Part shown: piece by piece, positions 4,986 through 60,499 of the stretch
Layout of the letters: every line of letters starts with the position of its first letter
How positions within the stretch are numbered: position 1 is the stretch's first letter
Assembly (NCBI GenBank): GCA_963768335.1
Contig: CAVYHR010000006.1
Coordinates: 1 to 64,000 of the forward strand
Origin: an uncultured Peptococcaceae bacterium
GTDB taxonomy: Bacteria; Bacillota; DSM-12270; Thermacetogeniales; Thermacetogeniaceae
DNA length: 64,000 nucleotides
Direction of reading: 5' to 3'
Notes under the pieces: generated by a model
The model's input: only the letters and a program-made list of their open reading frames with translations
Told to the model about the DNA's origin: nothing
The model's database searches: none
Program-made: the position numbers and the translations under genes

Positions 4986-5197
4986 GCCGCCCTCCTGCCT
5001 TACGATCTGCTATTAGGCAACGCTCAACTTATTATGTGAAATAATCTCATCTTTCAAAAGGAGGCGGCAGACCGGACCGGGGTTTAAACCATACTTATTG
5101 CCCGGGGATGAGTTTGAGAGGTAATAATCAAGAAAAATGGTATAATACTGTAGTGAATAACCAGATTATCGCCTTGCCATCACCAGGAGGAATGCTT

Positions 5198-9103: not shown

Positions 9104-10438
9104 TTACAGGGCCGGAAGGTTGATCCTGAACGTGCTGCCATGTCCGGGAGCGCTGTCGACTTCGATCCAGCCGCCATGCGCCCTGATGATGCCATAAGCC
9201 ACCGGCAAGCCCAGCCCGGTGCCCTGGCCCGGCCGCTTGGTGGTGTAAAAAGGCTCGAAGATGCGGGACCGGTTGGCCTCGTCTATGCCGGCGCCGGTGT
9301 CGGACACCGAGAGGCAAACAAATCTGCCGGGAACAACGCCCGCCTGTCCGGGACGGCCCGCGGCCACGTTTTCAGTCTTGATGGTGAGGGCGCCGCCATT
9401 CGGCATGGCATCCCGGGCATTCAGCACCAGGTTGGCGATCGCCTGGTCGAGGGCGGCGGTATCGGCGTTCACCTTCCATAGGTGGGGGCATGTCTCCAGC
9501 CTGATGTCAATGTTCCCGCCCAGCCACGCCCGGTCCACTGACGCTTTTGCGGGCGCATCCCGGCGCGGGCGCGGCAGCATCTTACCAATCTCATCCACTC
9601 TCTGATTCAGGTCTGTGGGAACCTTGAAGAGGGGTAACCGGCAACTGAACAGCAGCATCTGCCTGGTAAGATTGGCGCAGATCAGGGCGCTGTTCCTGAT
9701 CCTCGATAATGCCCGGTGCAGGGGATTATCCATGGAAAGCCCGGGCAGAAAGAGGTCGGTGCAGGCGCAGATCACCGTCAACTGGTTGTTCAACTCGTGG
9801 GCCATGCCTCCGGCCAGGCGGCCCACCGCCTCCATCTTCCCTGCCTGCAACCACCCGGCCTGAGACTGGAGTTCGTCTTCTCCCTGCCCGGGCGGGTTGA
9901 GCCTCTCCTCCTCTTTCCTGTGTCCGGAGATGTCACGAAGCGCCACCAGCACCGCCGGCTCCCCCTGGCAGGCGATCGTCCTGGCCTCGATCTCCACCCG
10001 TATCTCCTGCCCGGTCTTGGAAATGATCTTGACGGAAAAGGTCGACACCGACACTGCTCCACGACGGAGCGCCTCATACCCCTCTTTGACGATCTCCCGA
10101 AAATCCGGGGCTATGAGCCTCCACAGATCCACTTTTTTGAGTTCCCTCGCCGTATACCCGGCGAAGTCATGGGAGCACGGGTTGACCGGGCGCAGGCGGC
10201 TTCCCTGGATAATATAAATAAAAGCTGGCGACACTTCCGCCAGCAGCCTGTAATCGAGTAAGTCTTTCCTGAGGCCGGCCTCCCGTTTCCGGTGTTCCAG
10301 AATCTCCCTTTCCAATGCCTGGTTGACAGTTACCAGTTCCTGCAGGTGTTCCCTCAACTGCTCGGGGGAGTACTCACTGCCGAAACCGGTTTCTTCATGC
10401 ACCTGCCGGGGCATTGCATCCGGGACTCGCTCATCCAC
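9104..10438 (-). CDS. cytoplasmic PAS-domain sensor histidine kinase (HisKA + HATPase_c), no adjacent response regulator
   Basis: H-box MAHELNNQLTVI. N-box LVLNARDAM. G-boxes DTGAGI and GQGTGLGL. PAS-like region upstream. No TM segment. Confidence 0.85.
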   Translation of the reverse strand: MDERVPDAMPRQVHEETGFGSEYSPEQLREHLQELVTVNQALEREILEHRKREAGLRKDLLDYRLLAEVSPAFIYIIQGSRLRPVNPCSHDFAGYTARELKKVDLWRLIAPDFREIVKEGYEALRRGAVSVSTFSVKIISKTGQEIRVEIEARTIACQGEPAVLVALRDISGHRKEEERLNPPGQGEDELQSQAGWLQAGKMEAVGRLAGGMAHELNNQLTVICACTDLFLPGLSMDNPLHRALSRIRNSALICANLTRQMLLFSCRLPLFKVPTDLNQRVDEIGKMLPRPRRDAPAKASVDRAWLGGNIDIRLETCPHLWKVNADTAALDQAIANLVLNARDAMPNGGALTIKTENVAAGRPGQAGVVPGRFVCLSVSDTGAGIDEANRSRIFEPFYTTKRPGQGTGLGLPVAYGIIRAHGGWIEVDSAPGHGSTFRINLPAL

Positions 10439-16961: not shown

Positions 16962-17882
16962 TCAGAGCTTCAGGCTTCTGAGATCAGGCAGACTGGCCGC
17001 CCAGTCCAGGACATCCTCCTGACACCGGGCAACCCGGACCGGCCCCCCTTCGGGAAGCAGATCCCGCTCCCCGCCGTCCCAGGCGCCCTCAGGGCGCGGG
17101 CGCCCCACCACCACCACCGGGATGTTCAGGTTCAGGGCGGCCCGCACCTTCTCCGTCGTACCCCCCTCGTCTCCGCTCTCCTTGACCACGAAGGCTTCAG
17201 CGCCGCAGGCCTCCAGCAGGGCCTCGTTGAGCCTTACCGTGCCCGGCCCCTGGAAGGCGACGATCTGCCCCGGACTCAGGCCGAGACGGCGGCAGGCATC
17301 CAGGGATTCGGATACGGGCAGCACCCGTACCGTGAACCGGCAGCCGGCCAGGGCGGGGTGATTGATGATGGCGCTCAGCGGCTTCACCCCCACCGCCAGG
17401 AAGACCTGCCTGGCGCCCAGGGCCGCCAACTGTTCGGCCGCCTCCGGCCAGCCGGATACTACATGCACCAGCGGGCTGTCAGGCAAAGCTGCCGGCGGAC
17501 GTTCCCAGCGCAGGCAGGGAATGCCGCAGTTCAGGGCCGCCTCCCGGGCCAGGCGGGACACCTCCACCGCGAAGGGATGGGTGGCGTCCAGCAGGCCCTG
17601 CACCTGCCCAGATCGCAGCAACTCCTCCAGGGCCGCCCGGTCCAGCCGCCCCTCCCGCACCGCCAGGCCCGGGGCTGCGGTGCGCAGCACCTCGGCGCCG
17701 TAAGGCGTGGCTGCGCTGGCCAGCACCTGCCAGCCGGCTGCCGCCAGGACCGCCGCCAGGTCCCTGCCGTCCCGGGTTCCCGCCAACACCAGAATCATCG
17801 TCGTACGTCGGACTTCGGACGTCGGAATTTGCATGTCTTTTTGAATGCCTTCCTTATTGGGTGTTGGTTTTTTTCCAACCAC
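16962..17882 (-). CDS. cbiJ: cobalt-precorrin-6A reductase
   Basis: MILVLAGTRDGRDLA... The true start is probably the internal Met near 17798. Confidence 0.8.
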   Translation of the reverse strand: MVGKKPTPNKEGIQKDMQIPTSEVRRTTMILVLAGTRDGRDLAAVLAAAGWQVLASAATPYGAEVLRTAAPGLAVREGRLDRAALEELLRSGQVQGLLDATHPFAVEVSRLAREAALNCGIPCLRWERPPAALPDSPLVHVVSGWPEAAEQLAALGARQVFLAVGVKPLSAIINHPALAGCRFTVRVLPVSESLDACRRLGLSPGQIVAFQGPGTVRLNEALLEACGAEAFVVKESGDEGGTTEKVRAALNLNIPVVVVGRPRPEGAWDGGERDLLPEGGPVRVARCQEDVLDWAASLPDLRSLKL

Positions 17883-17956
17883 TAAAACTCACCACCATCT
17901 AGTCATGAGCTTTTAGTAGTTTGGCCTTAACCTCGAGAGGGCCAATTACTCATCAC

Positions 17957-18796
17957 TCATTGCTCATCACTGATTTTATAGCCCCTGGGGGTTACCATGA
18001 AGCCGTCCCTGGTATAGGTCTGGCTGTTCCCCACCAGGACCACCGATTGCATGTCAATCTCCACTGACAGGAACCGCTCCAGGTCCGAGAGGATGACCTG
18101 CTGACCGCTGCGCCCGGCGCCGGTGACCACCCCCACCGGGGTATCCGGCTTCCGGTGCCTGAGCAGGACATCCCTGGCCTCCTCGATCTGGGTGACCCTC
18201 CGCCTGCTCTTGGGATTATAGAAGACCACCACGAAATCACCCCAGGCGGCGGCCTCGATCCGCCGCCCGATGACCTCCCAGGGCGTCAACAGATCGCTCA
18301 GGCTGATCACCGCGAAGTCGTGCATCAGCGGCGCTCCCAGCAGAGCGGCCGCAGCCGAAGCGGCGGTGATCCCCGGCACCACCCGGAAGTCCACCTCCGA
18401 CTGCCTGCCGGTGCCCAGCAGCACCTCCAGCACCAGGCCGGCCATGCCGTAGACCCCGGCATCCCCGCTGCTGACCACCACCACCCGGCGCCCGTCCAGG
18501 GCGTGATCCACCGCCAGGCGGGCGCGCTCCACTTCCTGGCGCATGCCGCTGCCCAGGGTGAGGCCCCCGGGCGGGAGAATATCCTTTAAAAGCTGCAGAT
18601 AGGTGCGGTAGCCGACGATCACCCCGGCGGAGGCCAACTCCCCGGCGGCGCCATAACTCAGGTGCGCCTGATCGCCCGGCCCGATGCCGACCACAGCAAG
18701 CCGGCCTCGGCCAGGGCCACCGTGACCCGGTTGAACTTGGTCTTCCGAAGCACCAGGACGCCGTCCGGAACCGCCGCCAGCGCTGCTGTCTCGCAT
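17957..18796 (-). CDS. cbiH: cobalt-factor III / precorrin-3B C17-methyltransferase
   Basis: VVGIGPGD...VVVSSGDAGVYGMAG...DLLTPWE...VVVFYNP. The N-terminus of the track ORF is probably over-extended. Confidence 0.85.
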   Translation of the reverse strand: MRDSSAGGGSGRRPGASEDQVQPGHGGPGRGRLAVVGIGPGDQAHLSYGAAGELASAGVIVGYRTYLQLLKDILPPGGLTLGSGMRQEVERARLAVDHALDGRRVVVVSSGDAGVYGMAGLVLEVLLGTGRQSEVDFRVVPGITAASAAAALLGAPLMHDFAVISLSDLLTPWEVIGRRIEAAAWGDFVVVFYNPKSRRRVTQIEEARDVLLRHRKPDTPVGVVTGAGRSGQQVILSDLERFLSVEIDMQSVVLVGNSQTYTRDGFMVTPRGYKISDEQ

Positions 18797-41373: not shown

Positions 41374-41676
41374 TCCTCTCCGGATTTTCGGAACCGTTTC
41401 CGCTTTTTCGGTGCTTTTACTGTCTTTAACAGACACTACGCCGGCAGGACAACCCGGTTAACCGCGCTGTCTATGGCAACGGAGAAACCGAGGTACACCA
41501 CCGCCCCGGCAGCATCCGGCAGGCAGGCTGCTGAGCATCCGGCGGCTGCTGCCTACAACCGGAGCCGGTACCCGCCCGCCGGTTCCCGATTGTGGCATGA
41601 AATATGCATGTTTATATAGGCAGGAAAACAAAAACGAGGCCGCCGGAAGGGGCCGGAATGAGGGGAGAGGGCGAAC

Positions 41677-41850
41677 ATGGCAGTGGCACTGAGGACTTTC
41701 GAGGAGCTTGAGCATCGGGACGCAGAGGTGAAGAGGCCGGGATTGAAACTCGAAAAACGGGCCGAGACAGGCAGGGTAGAGTACGAATTCCCCTATGACG
41801 ACCTCTACCAGATGTACGACTACATCACCAAAGAACTGGGTATCAAGTAA
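41677..41850 (+). CDS. small hypothetical protein (57 aa), tandem paralogue 1
   Basis: RBS AGGGGAGAGGG then ATG. MAVALRTFEELEHRDAEVKRPGLKLEKRAETGRVEYEFPYDDLYQMYDYITKELGIK. Below the ORF-track cutoff. The whole unit, including the RBS, is tandemly duplicated. Confidence 0.5.
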   Translation: MAVALRTFEELEHRDAEVKRPGLKLEKRAETGRVEYEFPYDDLYQMYDYITKELGIK

Positions 41851-41922
41851 CAACAACCGGGTAGAGATCTTAAAAAAAACAGGCCGCCGGAAGCGGGGCC
41901 GGAATGAGGGGAGAGGGCGAAC

Positions 41923-42096
41923 ATGGCAGTGGCACTGAGGACTTTCGAGGAGCCTGAGCATCGGGACGCAGAGATCAAGATACCGGTTTGGACACAGCAA
42001 GAGCGGATCGAGAGAGGCAAACTCGAGTACGAATTCCCTTATGACGACCTCTACCAGATGTACGACTACATCACCCAAGAACTGGGCATCAGGTAG
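41923..42096 (+). CDS. small hypothetical protein (57 aa), tandem paralogue 2
   Basis: MAVALRTFEEPEHRDAEIKIPVWTQQERIERGKLEYEFPYDDLYQMYDYITQELGIR. Same RBS and leader as paralogue 1. Confidence 0.5.
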   Translation: MAVALRTFEEPEHRDAEIKIPVWTQQERIERGKLEYEFPYDDLYQMYDYITQELGIR

Positions 42097-43157: not shown

Positions 43158-43191
43158 CTAGGCGTCACTTTGTTCCTCCAACCACCGACCA

Positions 43192-44286
43192 CTAACCACC
43201 AACCACCAAAATCGTCCCGCCCCCCAGCACCACGTCGCCGTCGTACAGAACCACCGCCTGGCCCGGGGTGATCGCCTTCTGGGGTGCCTGGAAGTCCACC
43301 CGGAGCCGGTCTTCGCCAATGGCTGCGGCCACCGCCCCCGCCCGCGGCGCCTTGTAGCGGATCTTGGCCGTGACCGGCTGCGGCCGTTCGAGAGGCATCC
43401 CTGAGATGTAGTTGACATCGCCGGCGATCAGGCTGTTTTGATAGAGATCCCGCTCCGCCCCCACCCACACGGTGTTGGTCTGGAGATCGATCCGGGTCAC
43501 GTACAGCGGGTAGTCAGACGTCAGCCCCAGACCCTTGCGCTGACCGACGGTATAGCAGCAGACGCCCCGGTGGCGGCCGAGGACCTGCCCATCTGTGTGT
43601 CTGAACAACCCCTCAGCCCCCGTGGAGCCCGTTCTCTCGGCCACGAAGCCGGCGTAACTCTGCCCGGAGACGAAACAGATCTCCTGGCTCTCGGCCTTTT
43701 CCGCCACTGTCAGGTCAGCCTGGCGGGCGATCCGCCGTACCTCCTGCTTGCGGTATTCTCCCAGGGGAAAGAGGGTGTGCTCCAGTTGCTGCTGGGTCAT
43801 CTGGTAGAGGGCGTAGGTCTGGTCCTTGGAGGCGTCCGCCGCCGTGCGCAGTTGCCACCTTCCGTCATCGTCCCGCTCGATCCGGGCGTAGTGTCCGGTG
43901 GCCAGGTAGTCCGCCCCCAGGCCACGGGCCTTGTGCAGCAGCGTCCCAAACTTGAGGTAACGGTTGCAGGCGATACACGGGTTAGGGGTGCGGCCGGCGT
44001 GATACTCCCTGCAGAAGTAGCTGATCACCCGGTTCTCAAACTCCGCACGGAAATCCAGGACGTAGTGGGGGATGCCCAACTGCCAGGCTACCCGCCTGGC
44101 ATCGTCGATGGCCGACAGCCCACAGCAACTGCGGTCGCCGCTGGAGCTCGGCCAGACCTGCATGGTGACGCCGGCCACCTCGTATCCCTGGCGCTTTAAC
44201 AGCAGGGCAGCCACGGAGCTGTCCACCCCGCCGCTCATGGCCACCACCACCCGCCGCGGATTTGCTACTTTTCCACCATCGCTCAC
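43192..44286 (-). CDS. mnmA: tRNA 2-thiouridine(34) synthase
   Basis: GTG start. VVVAMSGGVDSSVAA (PP-loop)...catalytic Cys motifs. The C-terminus LVVGG is encoded by a TGGTGGT-type tandem repeat. Confidence 0.9.
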   Translation of the reverse strand: MSDGGKVANPRRVVVAMSGGVDSSVAALLLKRQGYEVAGVTMQVWPSSSGDRSCCGLSAIDDARRVAWQLGIPHYVLDFRAEFENRVISYFCREYHAGRTPNPCIACNRYLKFGTLLHKARGLGADYLATGHYARIERDDDGRWQLRTAADASKDQTYALYQMTQQQLEHTLFPLGEYRKQEVRRIARQADLTVAEKAESQEICFVSGQSYAGFVAERTGSTGAEGLFRHTDGQVLGRHRGVCCYTVGQRKGLGLTSDYPLYVTRIDLQTNTVWVGAERDLYQNSLIAGDVNYISGMPLERPQPVTAKIRYKAPRAGAVAAAIGEDRLRVDFQAPQKAITPGQAVVLYDGDVVLGGGTILVVGG

Positions 44287-50542: not shown

Positions 50543-51147
50543 ACCAATCCCTCCTCTTTAATCCTTGCTTGAAACCTGGTTGATAAAAGCTAAAACGGAC
50601 TATACCACTACGGCTTTCAGCCCCTCTGGCGAGGGGACTGCCCGACCACCCCCTAATGTTGAAGCCAATCTTTTGTAAACACGATCATGAAAGATGCATC
50701 TTCCCATCACTCTTGCCGAAAGCACGATCACGCTTCAATTCCCCGGAGGGACGTTGCAACCAGCAACCCCGCCGCGACTCCTGCCGTCGTCTCAGTCTCA
50801 TGATGGGATGCTCTGACATCAAGCCCTTGAACGCGATCAGACTGCCCCCGTTCACCACCCTTGCACCTCTGGAATGCCTTTGTCGTCCCCTCTCGCCGGT
50901 TCAAGGCGATCAGGCTGCTCTTGTCCGACTACTGCCCGGTCTTCAGACCCTTGGTACCGGGTCAACGACGGCAATGGCCCTGGGGCATCACAATGCGTTA
51001 TGGGTATTCAAGATGTCTATTCGAGGGAAAAAGCCAAATTCCTGCTGTAATCTTCAAAAAACTCTGCAGCATTTTAAAAATGAGTTGTGGGACAGTCTCT
51101 GAAACATTGTTCCGGCCACGGGCCCCTCCGGGTGCCCGCCGCCCCTG

Positions 51148-52029
51148 TTACTCGTATCCGAAGGATTGCAGGGCGCTCTCATTATCCCGCCATTCTTTCT
51201 TCACCTTGACCCACAGTTCCAGGAAAATCTTGTTTCCGAACAGGGCTTCCAGTTCCAGCCGGGCCAGCCGGCCAATCTCCTTCAACATCAGCCCGCCCTT
51301 GCCGATCAGGATCCCTTTCTGGGATTCCCGCTCCACGTAAATGACGGCCGGCAGGTAGAGAGTCTGATTGGCCCGGGTCTGCATCTCCTCGACGACCACC
51401 GCTATGGAGTGGGGAACCTCCTCCCGGGTCAGCAGCAGTACCTTCTCCCTGATGATCTCCGCCGCCACGAAGCGCTCCGGCTGGTCGGTCACCATCTCCT
51501 GCGGGTAGTAGCACGGCCCCTCCGGCAGGTTGTCGAAGATCAGTCCCTTGACCTGATCCAGGTTGGCGCCAGTGAGAGCCGATGCCGGCACTATCTCCAG
51601 AAAGGTGCCGCGCCTGGAATACCATTCCATGACCGGCAACAGCCCGTCCTTCTTGATCAGGTCGATCTTGTTCAACACCAGGATCACCGGGGTGCGCACC
51701 CCGCCAACCTGGTTGAGGATGAACTCCTCCCCGGGGCCGGTCGGCGCGGCGGCGTCCACCACGTAAAGGAGCAGGTCGACTCCGTCCATGGCCCTCCGGA
51801 CCACTTTCAACATATACTCCCCCAGCCGGTGGCGCGGCCGGTGGATGCCCGGCGTATCCAGGAAGACCACCTGCCCCTCGTCGTTGGTGCAGATGCCCAG
51901 GATGCGGTTCCTGGTAGTCTGGGGCTTGTCCGAAACGATGGCAATCTTCTGCCCGACGAACTGGTTGATCAGAGTGGATTTTCCCACGTTCGGCCGTCCG
52001 ATGATGCATACAAATCCCGACTTTATCAA
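51148..52029 (-). CDS. era: GTPase Era
   Basis: GRPNVGKSTL (G1), DTPG (G3), NKID (G4), C-terminal KH domain. Confidence 0.95.
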   Translation of the reverse strand: MIKSGFVCIIGRPNVGKSTLINQFVGQKIAIVSDKPQTTRNRILGICTNDEGQVVFLDTPGIHRPRHRLGEYMLKVVRRAMDGVDLLLYVVDAAAPTGPGEEFILNQVGGVRTPVILVLNKIDLIKKDGLLPVMEWYSRRGTFLEIVPASALTGANLDQVKGLIFDNLPEGPCYYPQEMVTDQPERFVAAEIIREKVLLLTREEVPHSIAVVVEEMQTRANQTLYLPAVIYVERESQKGILIGKGGLMLKEIGRLARLELEALFGNKIFLELWVKVKKEWRDNESALQSFGYE

Positions 52030-52105
52030 TGCTCACTCCATTCTAGAAGTTAGATATTCGAAGTTCGGCCTTCTATTAACCGTTCAAGTAGTCAGAATTC
52101 AGGAG

Positions 52106-52170
52106 TCAGTACTCAGAATACCCCGAGAGTTTTCGCCCGTTCCTGAGTCCTGGCTCCTGGCTCCTGACTA
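52106..52170. repeat. ~65-nt palindromic element with CAGGAGT/CTCCTG heptamer arms in the era-dgkA spacer
   Basis: AATTCAGGAGTCAGTACTCAG...CTGAGTCCTGGCTCCTGGCTCCTGACTAC. Same heptamer as the tandem repeat inside ybeY. Confidence 0.55.
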
Positions 52171-52536
52171 CTATTTCAATAGCATGCGCAGGTGCGGCAG
52201 GAATATCAGCACCCCCACCACCACCGCGTTCAGGGCGGAGACCAGCACCGCCCCCGCCGCGATATGCTTGGCCAGGCGCGCCAGCGGGTGATAGGTATCC
52301 ACGAACAGGTCGACCGTCTTTTCCAGGGCTGTGTTGAACATCTCCGCCGCCACCACGAAGCTGATGGCGAACAGCAGCAGCGCCCATTCCAGGCGGCTCA
52401 GCTTCAGCAGCCAGGCGGCGACCAGGACCGCGACAGCCGCAACCAGGTGCACCTGCATGTTGCGCTGGGTGCTGAGGCAATACCACATCCCGGACAGCGC
52501 ATCCCCGAATGACATCTTGAAGGAGCGCCTATGCAT
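52171..52536 (-). CDS. dgkA: diacylglycerol kinase
   Basis: Three-TM DgkA family. Position conserved between era and ybeY. Confidence 0.85.
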   Translation of the reverse strand: MHRRSFKMSFGDALSGMWYCLSTQRNMQVHLVAAVAVLVAAWLLKLSRLEWALLLFAISFVVAAEMFNTALEKTVDLFVDTYHPLARLAKHIAAGAVLVSALNAVVVGVLIFLPHLRMLLK

Positions 52537-53188
52537 CCCTGACCGCTCCCAACCCCAGCTTGTCCATCACTTGACGGGCAATCTCCATCATCCTGGCGGC
52601 GCCGCCATCGGTCTCATCATCATAGCCCAGCAGGTGCAGCATCCCGTGCACCGCCAGGAAGACCATCTCTGCCTTAAAAGAATTGCCGTAGGCAGCAGCC
52701 TGGTCGAGCGCCCTGGGGACCGAGATGACGATGTCCCCCAACAGCACCTCCATATCGGTCGTCGGATTCTCGTTGGCAGGTGCCCGCCGGGGCAGGCGCG
52801 CTTCGCCAATCCCTTCTTTACACTCCTGACTCCTGACTACTGACTCCTGACTCCTGTATTCTATCATCGGGAAGGACAGCACGTCGGTGGTATCGGCAAT
52901 GCCCCGGTACTGCTGGTTCAGAGCCGCCATCCCGACGTCGTCGACCAGGGCCAGGCTGACCTCTATTTGAGAGGTGAGAGGTGGGAGGTGGGAGGCGAGA
53001 TTCTTGTTGGCATCGGCTCCGCCGATGCCTTCTTCTATTCCCACTTCACACTTCCGCGCCCGTCCACCGGACGGGCACCCGCTCACTTCCTCCAAGGCCA
53101 GCACATCCTTGAGGGCATTCTCGATCAGCGAGCAAAGATCCTCGCCGACCGCGGCCTCCTGCTGCTCGTTACTGATTAACAACTGCAC
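52529..53188 (-). CDS. ybeY: rRNA maturation endoribonuclease YbeY carrying two in-frame repeat-derived insertions (219 aa versus the usual ~150)
   Basis: Conserved MQLLISNEQ..., VSLALVDD...DVLSFPM, LGDIVISVPRA, FLAVHGMLHLLGYD (HxxxHxxxxxH). Extra segments at about aa 36-74 (nt about 52966-53083) and aa 109-148 (nt about 52744-52864) coincide with GAGGTGG-type and CAGGAGT x5 tandem repeats. Confidence 0.85.
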   Translation of the reverse strand: MQLLISNEQQEAAVGEDLCSLIENALKDVLALEEVSGCPSGGRARKCEVGIEEGIGGADANKNLASHLPPLTSQIEVSLALVDDVGMAALNQQYRGIADTTDVLSFPMIEYRSQESVVRSQECKEGIGEARLPRRAPANENPTTDMEVLLGDIVISVPRALDQAAAYGNSFKAEMVFLAVHGMLHLLGYDDETDGGAARMMEIARQVMDKLGLGAVRDA

Positions 53189-55355
53189 CCCGCGCCCTCC
53201 TTCTTTCGATCTCGGTGATCATCGTTTCCGGGTATTCGATACGGGAGTGGAAGATGCCGCCGAGCACCTGCACAAAGGTAGCGGCGATGGTGTTCAGGTC
53301 TTTGAACGTCAGGTCGCATTCATCCAACTGCCCGTCGTGCAGCCGCTCCTTGATGATCTTTCTGGTCAGGCCCTCCAACCGTGCCGGGGTAGGCTTCTGC
53401 AGGGACCTGATGGCCGCTTCCACGCTGTCCGCCAGCATCACCAGGGCAGCCTCCTTGGTCCGGGGCTTGGGGCAGTCATAACGGAAATCCGCCTCAGTCA
53501 CCAACTCCGGGCGGTCGCTCTCCAGGGCCCGCTGGTAGAAGTAGGCAACCAGGCTGGTGCCGTGGTGCTGTTCGATGATCTCCTGCACACCGGCGGGGAG
53601 ATTGTGCTCCCGGGCCTGCTCCAGGCCGTCCCTGACGTGTGAGGTGATGATCAGGGTGCTCAGGCTGGGAGCGATCTTTTCGTGCGGGTTGTCCCGGGCC
53701 ACCTGGTTTTCAATGAAGAAGTACGGTCGCTTGATCTTGCCGATATCGTGATAGTAGGCCCCCACCCGCACCAGCAACGGGTCGGCGTGTACCGCCTGAG
53801 CCGCCGCCTCGGCCAGGTTGCCCACCAGGATGCTGTGGTGGTAGGTACCCGGCGCTTCAACCAGCAGGCGCTTGAGCAGCAGTTCATTGGGGTTGGCCAG
53901 TTCCAGCAGCTTGACGGAACTGGTGATCCCGAACAGAGTCTCCAGGTAGGGTAGAAACCCCAACAGCATGATCGAAGACAGAAAACCACCGGCCACGCCC
54001 AGCCCCATTCCCATCATCACGGTGGCGGCATCGGAGGTGTTAAGCAGCCCCAACACTAAAATCACCGCTGCGTTGACCCCCGCGACAAAGGCGCCGCCCC
54101 GGATGAGCCCCGCCCGGTCACTCAGGTTGGAGACGCTGTAGATCCCGGCCAGGCTACCGGCCAGGCCGGCAATGGCAAAAGAGATCTGCCCGTCCAGCAT
54201 CACCCCCAGCAGCAGGCTCAGGATAAGGGAGGTGAACACTGCCAACTCGGCATCCATCAACACGGTGATCAGCATCGCTCCACCCGCCAGCGGCGCCAGG
54301 TAACCGATCAGCCCGGCCGTCTCCGCCTGCGAGCCCAGTCTGATCAGGGTGACCCCCTTGGCGGCCAGCAGGGTGAGGGTGACGAGGATGCTATAGAGGG
54401 CGATGTACCGGTTCCGCTCATAAAACCTCGGCTGGAACTGCTTCAGGTAGGCCGCCGTCAACCCTGCCAGCAGCAGCACCAGGAAAACGACCCCGAACAC
54501 GGGCGGCCAGATATTCTGAGTCCGCAGCAGCCCCAATTGCTGGAGCTCTGCCAGCCGGTTGGCGTCGATCATCTCGCCCTTCGCCACGATTACCTGGTTG
54601 GCCAGGACCGAGTGCTGCACCGGGCTGACGCTTGCCCGGGCCTCAGCCACCTTGCTGGCGTACGTCTCCAGGTCCAACACCAGGTTCGGCCTCAGGATAT
54701 GGGTCAGAATAAAGGTCACGGCAGGCTTCAAATCCCGGTCCAGGTTCGAGGAGGCCACCTGGCCCGACAGGTTATCCCGGGCGTCCGGCAGGGCATCCTC
54801 GGTCAACCCGTACTGGAGAGAGTCATTAAGCCAACTCTGGCACAAGGAGTACAGCCTGGTTAACTGGGTGTTGTTCAAGGACAACAGCGCTCCCAGGGAG
54901 GTGGGGTCCACCGAGGCCACATCCGTGTCGGAAGCCCCGGTCGCCTGGGCCAGGTAACCCTGAAGCAGGCTGTCGCTTCGCTGGGCCGGCAGATTCTGGC
55001 GCTGCAGGTCCCTGATCTCGTTGAAGACTCCCTGGAGGTTGGACTCGACCTCCGGCAGCACCTGGTCGTCGCGCTGGTAGACGTTCTCCACCCGGCTGGC
55101 CGCCTCCCGGCGGGCGCTTTCGGTCTCCGCCTGGTCGACGTAGGACATGGTGCGAGGCGCCCTGATGTCGAATGGCGAGATCTGGCCCTCCGTGAGGGTG
55201 TAACCCCGCCCTATCAAGCCAGACCCGACGACAGCCGCCGCGATCACCAGGAATATGGCCACCAGTTCCACCCTGCGCAAGCCGCGGCGCGTAAGCTGCT
55301 GCCATCTATTGCGTAGCCAGAGGCTCCCTTGTCGCCAGGTGATCATGCGATCCAC
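53169..55355 (-). CDS. pgpH: 7TM-receptor with intracellular HD hydrolase domain (PgpH/YqfF family, c-di-AMP phosphodiesterase-like)
   Basis: N-terminal extracellular domain, 7 TM helices, C-terminal HD domain (GAYYHDIGKIKRPYFF). Confidence 0.85.
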   Translation of the reverse strand: MDRMITWRQGSLWLRNRWQQLTRRGLRRVELVAIFLVIAAAVVGSGLIGRGYTLTEGQISPFDIRAPRTMSYVDQAETESARREAASRVENVYQRDDQVLPEVESNLQGVFNEIRDLQRQNLPAQRSDSLLQGYLAQATGASDTDVASVDPTSLGALLSLNNTQLTRLYSLCQSWLNDSLQYGLTEDALPDARDNLSGQVASSNLDRDLKPAVTFILTHILRPNLVLDLETYASKVAEARASVSPVQHSVLANQVIVAKGEMIDANRLAELQQLGLLRTQNIWPPVFGVVFLVLLLAGLTAAYLKQFQPRFYERNRYIALYSILVTLTLLAAKGVTLIRLGSQAETAGLIGYLAPLAGGAMLITVLMDAELAVFTSLILSLLLGVMLDGQISFAIAGLAGSLAGIYSVSNLSDRAGLIRGGAFVAGVNAAVILVLGLLNTSDAATVMMGMGLGVAGGFLSSIMLLGFLPYLETLFGITSSVKLLELANPNELLLKRLLVEAPGTYHHSILVGNLAEAAAQAVHADPLLVRVGAYYHDIGKIKRPYFFIENQVARDNPHEKIAPSLSTLIITSHVRDGLEQAREHNLPAGVQEIIEQHHGTSLVAYFYQRALESDRPELVTEADFRYDCPKPRTKEAALVMLADSVEAAIRSLQKPTPARLEGLTRKIIKERLHDGQLDECDLTFKDLNTIAATFVQVLGGIFHSRIEYPETMITEIERRRARGAVVNQ

Positions 55356-55390
55356 TCCTGATAGCTACCTATCCGTGAGGCGAGATGTGC

Positions 55391-56359
55391 TCACATCTCA
55401 CCTCTCGTCTCACGTCTCTCATACGCCTCCACGATCTTCTGCACCAGCGGGTGGCGGATCACGTCGTCTCCGGTCAAGTACTGGAAGGACACGCCGTCCA
55501 CATCCTTGAGCACTTTCTGTACCTCGATCAGGCCGGAAGCCTGCCCGCGGGGCAGGTCTACCTGAGTGATATCGCCGGTGACCACAGCCTTGGAACCAAA
55601 ACCGAGGCGGGTCAGAAACATCTTCATCTGCTCGGGCGTGGTATTCTGGGCCTCGTCGAGAATGACGAAGGAATCGTCCAGGGTGCGCCCGCGCATATAG
55701 GCGAGCGGCGCCACTTCGATCACGTTCTTTTCCATATGGCGCTGGACGGTCTCCGCCCCAAACACACTGTAAAGCCCGTCGTAAAGCGGGCGCAGGTAAG
55801 GGTCGACCTTTTCCTGGATGTCCCCGGGCAAGAAGCCCAGCTTCTCCCCGGCCTCCACCGCCGGCCGGACCAGGACGATCCGGCTCACTTCCTTGTTGCG
55901 AAAGGACCGCACCGCCATTACCACCGCCAGGAAGGTCTTGCCGGTCCCGGCGGGGCCGATGGCAAACACCAGGTCATGGTCCCTGATCGCCTGGATATAG
56001 CGGGCCTGCCCGGTAGTCTTTGGGCGCACCGGTTTGCCCCTGGTGTTGGTCAGGATCACCTCGGACCTGATCTCTGCCAGGTTCACCTGTGACCGATCCG
56101 ACACCAGGCGCCAGGCGTAATTGATATCCGGGATGGTCACCGGATTCCCCTGCTCCGTCAAGGTGATCAACTGCTGCAACAGGGTGACGGTCCGGGCCAC
56201 CGCCTCTTCTTCACCGCGGATGACGATCTCGCCGCTCCGGGCGATGATCCTGGTAGCACTCTTCTCCTCGATGAATTTTAGATTCTCATCGAGATTGCCG
56301 AACAGGTTTAAGGCGTCATGATTGTTGTTGACCATGACCTTAGCTTCCGTGACTGACAA
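55391..56359 (-). CDS. phoH: PhoH-family ATPase
   Basis: VFAIGPAGTGKTFLAV (Walker A). Conserved position upstream of pgpH. Confidence 0.9.
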   Translation of the reverse strand: MSVTEAKVMVNNNHDALNLFGNLDENLKFIEEKSATRIIARSGEIVIRGEEEAVARTVTLLQQLITLTEQGNPVTIPDINYAWRLVSDRSQVNLAEIRSEVILTNTRGKPVRPKTTGQARYIQAIRDHDLVFAIGPAGTGKTFLAVVMAVRSFRNKEVSRIVLVRPAVEAGEKLGFLPGDIQEKVDPYLRPLYDGLYSVFGAETVQRHMEKNVIEVAPLAYMRGRTLDDSFVILDEAQNTTPEQMKMFLTRLGFGSKAVVTGDITQVDLPRGQASGLIEVQKVLKDVDGVSFQYLTGDDVIRHPLVQKIVEAYERRETRGEM

Positions 56360-59954: not shown

Positions 59955-60464
59955 ATGTTCGCAGAGTTTATCCTGGCAGCGCTGGCCTGCCTGGGTACCC
60001 TGGCCGCCTCCCTGGCGGTGTACTTCCATTACCAGGGGGACAGTGAGATTACCTTTGACACCGGGGCCGCCAGGGACTCCCGGGTCACCAAAAACATGCT
60101 GCAGCGGTCTATCCGCTGCCGCTGCCTGATCCCCCTGGCCAACCACGGGCGGCAGAATGGTATGGTGATCAATGTTTTCTGCCAACCGATGTACTATGGA
60201 AAGATCATGGAGCAACTGGATATCACCGCCCGCCTGCGGCTGTTGGATGCGCCGGCGCGGCGGAACGGCTACTGGGAGGCGGTGATCGTCAAAAAGAACA
60301 CCGCCCGCCTGGTGGAGCTGGATGTAACAGTCCGTTCGCAGGTTGATCTGACCATGGTCGCCAGGGAGATCCCCTGCCTGAAGGTGATCATCTATTACCA
60401 GGTGGTCGGGCGCGACGGGATCCAGTGGCACCTGTCGGAAGCCCAATTCAATCTGGCCGGATAA
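59955..60464 (+). CDS. hypothetical membrane-anchored protein
   Basis: N-terminal TM helix MFAEFILAALACLGTLAASLAVYF and a ~140-aa soluble domain. Preferred over the GC-artefact ORF on the opposite strand. Upstream of the CofE-like gene. Confidence 0.5.
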   Translation: MFAEFILAALACLGTLAASLAVYFHYQGDSEITFDTGAARDSRVTKNMLQRSIRCRCLIPLANHGRQNGMVINVFCQPMYYGKIMEQLDITARLRLLDAPARRNGYWEAVIVKKNTARLVELDVTVRSQVDLTMVAREIPCLKVIIYYQVVGRDGIQWHLSEAQFNLAG

Positions 60465-60499
60465 TTGGGAAGTGGGACGTGGGATGGAGGAGGCGCGTC

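Follow-up and report, generated by a model that had tools for sequence, protein, structure and literature searches.

The extra segments of a YbeY protein from an uncultured peat Bacillota bacterium are probably copies of a modular, heptamer-armed repeat family

Introduction

Why is the YbeY protein encoded on a 64,000-nucleotide stretch of DNA from an uncultured Peptococcaceae bacterium (contig CAVYHR010000006.1 of assembly GCA_963768335.1; the whole stretch is hereafter called the window) so long? The open reading frame (ORF) list places its ybeY gene at 52529-53188 on the minus strand and gives a product of 219 aa. In an alignment of 34 homologues, the baseline YbeY relatives are about 160 aa long, lack both extra segments of the window protein and have short connections at the two points concerned. 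A preliminary description of the locus, made from the sequence alone, had proposed that the ybeY gene carries two in-frame insertions derived from related repeat elements. The analysis reported here indicates that the extra segments are probably copies of a small, non-autonomous, modular repeat family of uncultured peat-bog Bacillota.

Results

To define the extra segments of the window protein, its identity and the limits of both segments were determined. The 219-aa ORF matched YbeY (Pfam PF02130) with E = 5.9e-35 and 120.4 bits, the curated cut-off being 25; YbeY was the sole Pfam domain found in it, and it contained no intein-like domain. The gene order, phoH-yqfF (7TM-HD)-ybeY-dgkA-era, is of the Bacillota type. 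In the alignment of the 34 homologues, one extra segment follows helix 1 and precedes the EVSLALVDD strand and the other separates DVLSFPM from LLGDIVIS, so that both the long ybeY ORF and the places earlier given for its extra segments were confirmed. Their limits were measured against the insert-free allele P0015 in a DNA alignment of the window and five relatives (Table 1). The two tracts within the range first reported (52744-53083) were recovered, with measured limits (53095-52961 and 52864-52751) that are slightly wider. The results also showed that the tracts are repeat-derived and in frame, as had been proposed, but that they replace native loops of 16 and 24 codons and hence are not pure insertions.

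The two tracts share a core. The sequence GCCAACRAGAATC occurred exactly twice in the 64 kb of the window, both times in ybeY (0.16 expected), and the 5' core halves, GCTTCGCCAATCCCTTCTT and GCTCCGCCGATGCCTTCTT, were 84% identical, in agreement with the shared core of the preliminary description. Core 1 matched the nhmmer core model with E = 8e-12, core 2 gave a partial nhmmer match at 52800-52821, and a second hairpin module, designated H2, gave a pattern match in tract 1 at 53058-53079. The tandem heptamers noted before were likewise found: Tandem Repeats Finder reported a GAGGTGG-type array at 52968-53000 (period 7, 4.7 copies) and ACTCCTG x5 on the plus strand, which is CAGGAGT x5 on the coding strand, at 52822-52856 (score 63, 5.0 copies). 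The sequence CAGGAGTCAGGAGT had nine matches against 0.4 expected, and the window contained six period-7 arrays against 0.2 in shuffles. RNA folding of tract 1 gave -62.9 kcal/mol (z = -5.4). For tract 2 the z was 0.87, which means that the structure is gone; here a nested module splits the core hairpin.

The full element is about 115-135 nt long and consists, on the coding strand, of a purine-rich heptamer array, a core and a pyrimidine-rich heptamer array. The purine-rich array holds 3-5 heptamers of the GAAGTGG type or the CAGGAGT/AGTCAGG type, and the pyrimidine-rich array is of the TCACCTC type or the CGACGAC type. The core of about 38 nt reads (A)AGAAGGCATYGGC-NNN-GCCRATGCC-AACAAGAATC and forms a 9-bp GC-rich hairpin with a free 3-nt loop. 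Two subtypes were distinguished. Subtype A, of which tract 1 is an example, combines a GGCATYGGC core with GAAGTGG/TCACCTC arms, and subtype B, of which tract 2 is an example, combines a GGGATTGGC core with CAGGAGT/CGACGAC arms. Arm type tracks core subtype: the left-arm type of tract 1 also lies beside subtype-A cores at loci L129, L136, L074 and L140, subtype-B cores with CAGGAGT/CGACGAC arms were found at L078/L138, L127, L133 and L007, and CGACGAC/CGATGAC arrays follow subtype-B cores at other loci as well. The H2 module (GGGTGCCCG-loop-CGGGCGCG, 19-29 nt) takes various positions, outside the window also on its own: direct heptamer arrays contain it at L133 and L110, it forms the tips of palindromes at L063 and L129, and it sits in an arm of tract 1 and in the core loop of tract 2. 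A third nested module (GGCT-hairpin-GCTGAAAGCNCGCCTGCAC...) was seen to interrupt the core loop at two places of L003, namely 5086-5173 in the yabP-yqfD spacer and 10267-10400 in ybeY loop 2 of the SPRUCE 237 metagenome-assembled genome (MAG), and it also follows a core in L026 at about 160-250.

The stem of the core is conserved as a structure. Among 20 distinct copies it was paired in 99.4% of cells while the 3-nt loop varied freely, and all eight copies that vary at a stem position were compensated (C-G to G-C, U-A to C-G; two compensated positions), although the core search pattern imposed no stem pairing. The arms behave differently: those of subtype A show a loose inversion that those of subtype B lack. 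That the arms are strict copy-specific inverted repeats was considered and rejected, as the own-arm duplex had -18.0 kcal/mol against -14.9 kcal/mol with arms of other copies and a copy's own right arm rarely ranked first. A universally open reading frame was also rejected, as most frames of the intergenic copies contain stops; the coding copies are those that happen to be open. A search of Rfam with 51000-54000 gave no match at E up to 1, neither to an intron nor to another RNA family.

The element is dispersed in related genomes, in keeping with the proposed derivation of both tracts from related repeat elements. A scan of species-representative genomes used a pattern that proved too loose, returning at least 116 stretches that were mostly chance matches in unrelated phyla; from it only the seven loci with arm-core-arm architecture were used, and no claim is made on taxonomic limits. 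Among the matches listed, full-architecture copies were present in MAGs named Thermacetogeniaceae SPRUCE 237 and 354 and Peptococcaceae MFD04492.bin.2.79 and bog_1190. In the JGI metagenomes, a stricter scan returned 14 peat stretches, all of them (14/14) with the arm-core-arm architecture. The nhmmer core profile matched the dispersed copies with E values of 1e-9 to 1e-13, and these core copies, in spacers, rRNA operons and unrelated genes, were 80-100% identical in DNA to the ybeY core. More than 20 distinct copies were found in related sequences, and 20 were used for the stem and orientation counts.

Copies outside genes lie in the rpsJ-rplC and secY-adk spacers and in further spacers between co-directional genes, between tRNA-Ile and tRNA-Ala, and in the 16S-23S spacer. 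At L140 (1300-1732, peat contig Ga0224559_1006591), the apical loop of helix 6 of a 16S rRNA gene (Rfam positions ~80-83) is enlarged by 185 nt, and the inserted sequence includes a complete element with heptamer arms. The 16S gene of L028, too, exceeds the Rfam model in length, by about 110 nt. Besides ybeY, in-frame copies were found at two different sites of an ORF for a HemN/HemW-like radical-SAM protein (hemW-like), in HypF between the YrdC-like and Kae1-like domains, and in a two-domain peptidase U32, which has a core plus a separate H2 copy. The coding copies thus span four gene families, and in all of them the frame is kept and no stop occurs. They use two reading frames, encoding EGIGxAxANKN or RRxWRSQxQxES. 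A word-index search with the 45-aa peptide of tract 1 returned no candidates.

Comparison of ybeY alleles showed whether the segments are acquired or native. P0004 and P0015 are 97% identical in DNA outside the loops and the loop-1 element is present in P0004 only; P0015 has a native loop 1 of 48 nt, and loop 2 of both is native and 99% identical. The window and P0005 are 95% identical in DNA outside the loops and the loop-1 element is present in the window only. Loop 2 is occupied by subtype B in the window; in P0005 it holds a subtype-A composite whose left arm includes H2. One composite (arm, H2, core, arm) occupies loop 1 of the window and loop 2 of P0005. P0003 and P0008 have further loop versions, and at least five different versions occur among the relatives. 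Since alleles that are 95-97% identical outside the loops differ in the presence or subtype of the element, the tracts are read as acquired elements and not as native loops, and the allele pattern, as judged from these sequences, is one of turnover by gain, replacement or lateral transfer. The window, P0004 and P0003, which as lineages are not one another's closest relatives, share the exact junctions of tract 1, and this favours lateral transfer of the filled allele through homologous recombination for this tract. Between the window and P0004 the identity is 91% within tract 1 and 86% in the remainder of the gene. Conserved, non-repetitive loops shared by the relatives had been named in advance as the observation that would speak for native segments. 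None were found, the relatives having alleles without the element, with a different subtype or with the element in the other loop. The idea that the native loops are decayed older copies, which would account through gene conversion for the recurrence of elements at these places, found no support: aligned locally with the consensus of either subtype, the loops gave no significant score (p = 0.07-0.67).

The structure was modelled with AlphaFold2 from the 34-homologue alignment, the placement of the segments in the fold having been raised earlier as a check. The model has a confident YbeY core, with 108 residues at pLDDT >=90 and a pTM of 0.72, and Foldseek matched it to 7y7o, 1xm5 and 1oz9 with E values of 1e-10 to 5e-9 and target-normalised TM scores of 0.77-0.82, the best (0.82) being that to Staphylococcus aureus YbeY (7y7o). 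The pLDDT was below 50 at residues 38-61 (tract 1) and 112-144 (tract 2), and in a sequence search of the PDB the alignment was limited to residues 73-110 and 144-212. On the basis of the pLDDT and the PDB alignment, both tracts are predicted to be disordered surface loops on an intact YbeY fold. Neither tract contains a stop codon, and the flanking conserved residues and the fold are kept.

The metal motif differs from that of the preliminary description, which gave HxxxHxxxxxH. The motif found is HxxxHxxxxxD: HGMLHLLGYDD (HGMLHLLGYDDE; window 52616-52648) corresponds to H181-x3-H185-x5-D191, the third ligand being Asp and not His, so that the window protein departs from the H-x3-H-x5-H motif that serves as a criterion of the YbeY family. 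In the 34-homologue alignment, Asp is the third ligand also in the close relatives P0003-P0027, insert-bearing ones included, and distant YbeY proteins keep GYDH. Asp is able to bind zinc in other metzincin-like motifs, and YbeY activity with Asp191 is plausible from the sequence.

The orientation of the copies is strongly biased. Nineteen of the 20 distinct core copies are co-oriented with the flanking genes or rRNA, the exception being the copy in the yabP-yqfD spacer of L003, whose core loop is split by a nested insert. On the antisense strand (the plus strand for core 1) the core forms a 9-bp hairpin (7 GC) followed by TTCTTCTATT, with a terminator-like scan score, and several arm types, as read from the sequence, supply TGA in the reverse orientation. 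Selection against this antisense terminator and these stop codons inside operons would be enough to explain the orientation bias. A mechanism tied to transcription or to one DNA strand may also be its source.

The sequence of the gene was compared between assemblies. The 219-aa protein is encoded identically in two assemblies, the DNA of one differing by a lone synonymous C-to-T substitution within the core stem, and a third (L141, P0002) lacks 1 nt of the CCCC run of tract 2 (52792 in the window). The heptamer counts are equal in all three. The third assembly (ENA ERZ25039519 contig_26802), of a near-identical strain, contains many split genes (yqfD, yqfF, ybeY, hycI and others) with single-base homopolymer indels, and the 1-nt loss therefore points to a long-read indel error. 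P0002, a 199-aa 'YbeY', was considered as a natural pseudogene or variant and set aside as an artefact, its 1-nt loss in the C4 run lying in an assembly full of split genes.

Other heptamer structures occur in the window. The CAGGAGT-type palindrome that had been noticed in the spacer between era and dgkA was found at 52087-52172 (Table 1). Its RNA fold had z values of -6.2 and -7.1, and Tandem Repeats Finder placed heptamer arrays on both sides of the spacer. The palindrome is present at the orthologous site in L007 and absent from L003, where the spacer has 24 nt. A degenerate composite element with two hairpins and a GGAAGGCATTC core remnant occupies the spacer between two minus-strand genes, one cobJ-like and the other cobK-like, at 17799-17975; its heptamers are of the TGATGAG type over the cobJ stop and of the CGACGTC type into the cobK start region. 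At 55372-55418, with a heptamer structure recorded at 55390-55418, the final phoH codons together with the phoH-yqfF spacer are formed by the palindrome GAGACGT GAGACGA GAGGTGA GATGTGA / GCACATC TCGCCTC, which has heptamer arms and no core; the orthologous spacer is wholly different in L003 and L008. GGTGGTT x4 at 43178-43209 extends over the stop codon of an mnmA-like gene into the next ribosome-binding site, and TGGGAAG/TGGGACG/TGGGATG at 60463-60486 lies directly upstream of a start codon and merges into GGAGGAGG. At 41630-42095, a 246-nt unit is present in tandem duplicate (87% match), each unit containing a 57-aa plus-strand ORF (MAVALRTFEE..EYEFPYDDLYQMYDYIT.ELGI).

Table 1. Parts of the two tracts in ybeY and the related palindrome in the neighbouring spacer (window coordinates)
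Feature	Position	Strand	Description
Tract 1 (subtype A)	52961-53095	-	135 nt / 45 codons in place of the native 16-codon loop after helix 1
Extra left-arm unit, tract 1	53083-53091	-	GGAAGTGAG, 5' of H2
Module H2, tract 1	53054-53082	-	GCGGGTGCCCGTCC-GGTG-GACGGGCGCGG, small GC hairpin nested in the left heptamer arm
Left heptamer arm, tract 1	53034-53053	-	GAAGTGT GAAGTGG GAATAG, read from the sequence
Core 1	52999-53033	-	AGAAGGCATCGGC-GGA-GCCGATGCC-AACAAGAATC, 9-bp hairpin; exact match unique within the window
Right heptamer arm, tract 1	52964-52998	-	TCGCCTC CCACCTC CCACCTC TCACCTC TCAAATA
Tract 2 (subtype B, decayed)	52751-52864	-	114 nt / 38 codons replacing the native 24-codon DVLSFPM/LLGDIVIS loop
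Left heptamer arm, tract 2	52822-52856	-	CAGGAGT x5, one CAGTAGT variant
Core 2	52765-52818	-	AAGAAGGGATTGGCGAAGC ... GCCAACGAGAATC, split by a reversed H2-like module
Reversed H2-like module in the core 2 loop	52778-52800	-	CGCGCCTGCCCCGGCGGGCACCT
Residual right arm, tract 2	52751-52764	-	CGACGAC CGATATG, read from the sequence
dgkA-era spacer palindrome	52087-52172	-	Heptamer-armed (CAGGAGT-type), centre differs; 30-nt arms, 83% complementary

Discussion

The findings make it likely that the extra segments of the window YbeY are copies of a dispersed, heptamer-armed repeat family. The tracts would be translated as disordered, hydrophilic surface loops that YbeY tolerates, much like the segments encoded by Rickettsia palindromic elements (RPEs) in Rickettsia proteins. 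Copies would persist only where they are harmless, that is, in permissive loops and linkers, operon spacers and the tips of rRNA helices, and the surviving orientation would be the one that spares the transcript a hairpin-plus-U-tract terminator from the core and stop codons from the arms. Spread could involve an enzyme that acts in trans and recognises the hairpin; alternatively, the repetitive arms could serve ectopic or inter-strain recombination. For tract 1, inter-strain homologous recombination would be the simplest account.

Several observations weigh against this explanation or limit it. No clean empty/filled pair was found among the ybeY alleles: the filled sites replace the native loop rather than add to it, and between P0015 (empty) and P0004 (filled) a native loop of 48 nt gives way to an element of about 130 nt with no target-site duplication. 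The arms are only loosely complementary, so that the element appears not to be a classical inverted-repeat MITE (miniature inverted-repeat transposable element), and no transposase or parent insertion sequence (IS) turned up, although no search aimed at transposases was made. Both cores within the 64 kb sit in one 660-bp gene, a clustering not clearly expected from simple random insertion with later filtering. The count of in-frame copies depends on one DNA pattern scan, and an exhaustive HMMER search with the tract-1 peptide, which is too short and variable for such a search, matched only ybeY alleles. Translation of the tracts and activity of this YbeY are inferred and not observed, and with Asp instead of His as the third ligand, the enzyme may not be fully equivalent in catalysis to the studied YbeY proteins.

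The closest known parallel in behaviour is the RPE. These are palindromic repeats of about 150 bp that occur repeatedly in frame in housekeeping genes in a way compatible with the protein fold (Ogata et al. 2000, 2002, as summarised in PMC10969869). The present family resembles them as a dispersed palindromic repeat of about 100-150 bp (here tracts of 114-135 nt, with z = -5.4 for tract 1), in its recurrent in-frame presence in unrelated genes (two loops of ybeY, two sites of the hemW-like gene, hypF and peptidase U32), in encoding a recurring peptide (here one of the two given above) and in its placement where the protein fold can accommodate it. It differs in that its hosts are MAGs named Thermacetogeniaceae or Peptococcaceae, free-living anaerobic Bacillota and not obligate intracellular Alphaproteobacteria, in its tandem-heptamer arms (RPEs have unique sequence), its modular build with nested hairpins and its use of two reading frames, and in having copies also in rRNA/tRNA spacers and inside 16S rRNA. 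To our knowledge, the core consensus has no resemblance to RPEs, although it was not aligned directly with RPE sequences. By this comparison, the family is RPE-like in behaviour and not a member of the RPEs.

Other short repeats share part of these features. REP/BIME and REPIN sequences are short GC-rich hairpin repeats present in many copies in operon spacers, with orientation rules and RAYT transposases (PMC3116915). The present family likewise places GC-rich hairpin repeats in operon spacers, and an enzyme that recognises single-strand hairpins would be a plausible mobiliser; unlike REPs, which are extragenic by definition, it also has copies inside ORFs and 16S rRNA, and heptamer arms are no feature of REPs. 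Bacterial MITEs such as Correia, ERIC and BOX are non-autonomous, of similar size and occasionally form in-frame fusions (PMC10969869). The family shares these three traits and differs from MITEs in having no clear terminal inverted repeats and no target-site duplication, and in replacing sequence at its sites rather than adding to it. Translated selfish palindromes are a known kind, and the heptamer-armed family, judged from the genome matches listed and the literature searched, outside which two primary papers lay, appears not to be described. What distinguishes it is the heptamer-armed modular build, the uncultured peat Bacillota as hosts, and the repeated rewriting of the same two YbeY loops.

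A further parallel is offered by the STRR heptamer repeats and small dispersed repeats (SDR) of cyanobacteria, reportedly described by Elhai et al. in 2008. They are said to consist of variable tandem heptamer arrays in which hairpin modules of about 20-40 nt are embedded or nested, their structure kept by compensatory changes, and we know of no transposase associated with them. In the present family, too, tandem heptamer arrays (6 vs 0.2 expected in the window) host nested hairpin modules of about 20-30 nt (H2). The sequences probably differ, the host is of the Bacillota type by gene order and the names of its relatives, and the family has a fixed core between purine- and pyrimidine-rich arrays, strong co-orientation with transcription and prominent in-frame copies in essential genes. 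It is conceivable, if rather doubtful, that the family is a Bacillota counterpart of the cyanobacterial system, in which the core (38 nt) and H2 (19-29 nt) would home into, or be copied between, heptamer arrays by a process tied to the direction of transcription and without a classical transposase. If this were true, the same permissive sites, such as loops of essential enzymes and a 16S helix, would be rewritten repeatedly, and the family would drive the turnover of loops and spacers instead of being an occasional parasite.

It seems unlikely that the copies are instead exapted RNA or DNA signals, either hairpins that stabilise mRNA or guide RNase processing in polycistronic transcripts or antisense terminators, with a regulatory presence in ybeY, itself the gene of an rRNA/mRNA-processing nuclease in the phoH-yqfF-ybeY-dgkA-era operon. 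Such signals would fit the co-orientation of 19 of the 20 copies with transcription, the terminator-like antisense core, the compensatory changes that keep the stem, and the preference of the copies for operon spacers just upstream of ribosome-binding sites and for rRNA/tRNA spacers, which are processing sites. However, purifying filtering and recent common origin also explain the orientation bias and the stem conservation, Rfam gave no match, tract 2 was retained despite its lost structure (z about 0), and site occupancy varies among near-identical strains, which is unexpected for a required signal.

Phase variation, in which ybeY would be turned on and off by slippage in the heptamer tracts (7 not being divisible by 3), is very improbable. 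Five tandem CAGGAGT units do lie in the ORF, where the gain or loss of one would cause a frameshift, and the near-identical allele P0002/L141 is frameshifted within tract 2; but that frameshift is the 1-nt CCCC loss, with no heptamer change, in the assembly with many split genes, the three assemblies have the same heptamer counts, and the arrays are neither long nor perfect.

Native, lineage-specific YbeY loops that resemble each other by chance deserve almost no credence. In the element-free alleles P0012 and P0014-P0016 both loops already exceed those of baseline YbeY in length, and YbeY proteins of other lineages are also longer, such as those of Cohnella (~180 aa, against a baseline of ~150-160 aa), but the core recurs at 80-100% DNA identity in spacers, rRNA operons and unrelated genes, alleles of 95-97% identity differ in its presence and subtype, and native loops have no significant similarity to it. 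Equally negligible is the view that the tracts are assembly artefacts, or are removed before the protein is made as an intron or intein would be, YbeY really having ~160-175 aa, for although the very stable tract 1 hairpin (-63 kcal/mol) could promote template switching during sequencing or RNA processing, three independent assemblies agree, no intron or RNA family and no intein-like domain was matched, and the coding copies of four gene families keep the frame without stops, which would be unnecessary if they were excised.

The repeat family that probably gave rise to the extra segments of ybeY bears on more than this gene. The tracts inflate gene lengths and seed long-read frameshift errors, and they may mislead annotation and 16S-based typing of the group. 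In ybeY, hypF, hemW, the U32 peptidase and 16S rRNA they provide a natural experiment on which loops and helices tolerate additions of 40 residues or 130-185 nt, and the alleles with and without elements in a background of 95-97% identity are ready material for the study of element movement. So far, in-frame translated selfish repeats have been regarded as peculiar to Rickettsia, and repeats that combine heptamers with mini-hairpins as peculiar to heterocystous cyanobacteria. The occurrence of both traits together in free-living, uncultured peat anaerobes suggests that the phenomenon is more general.

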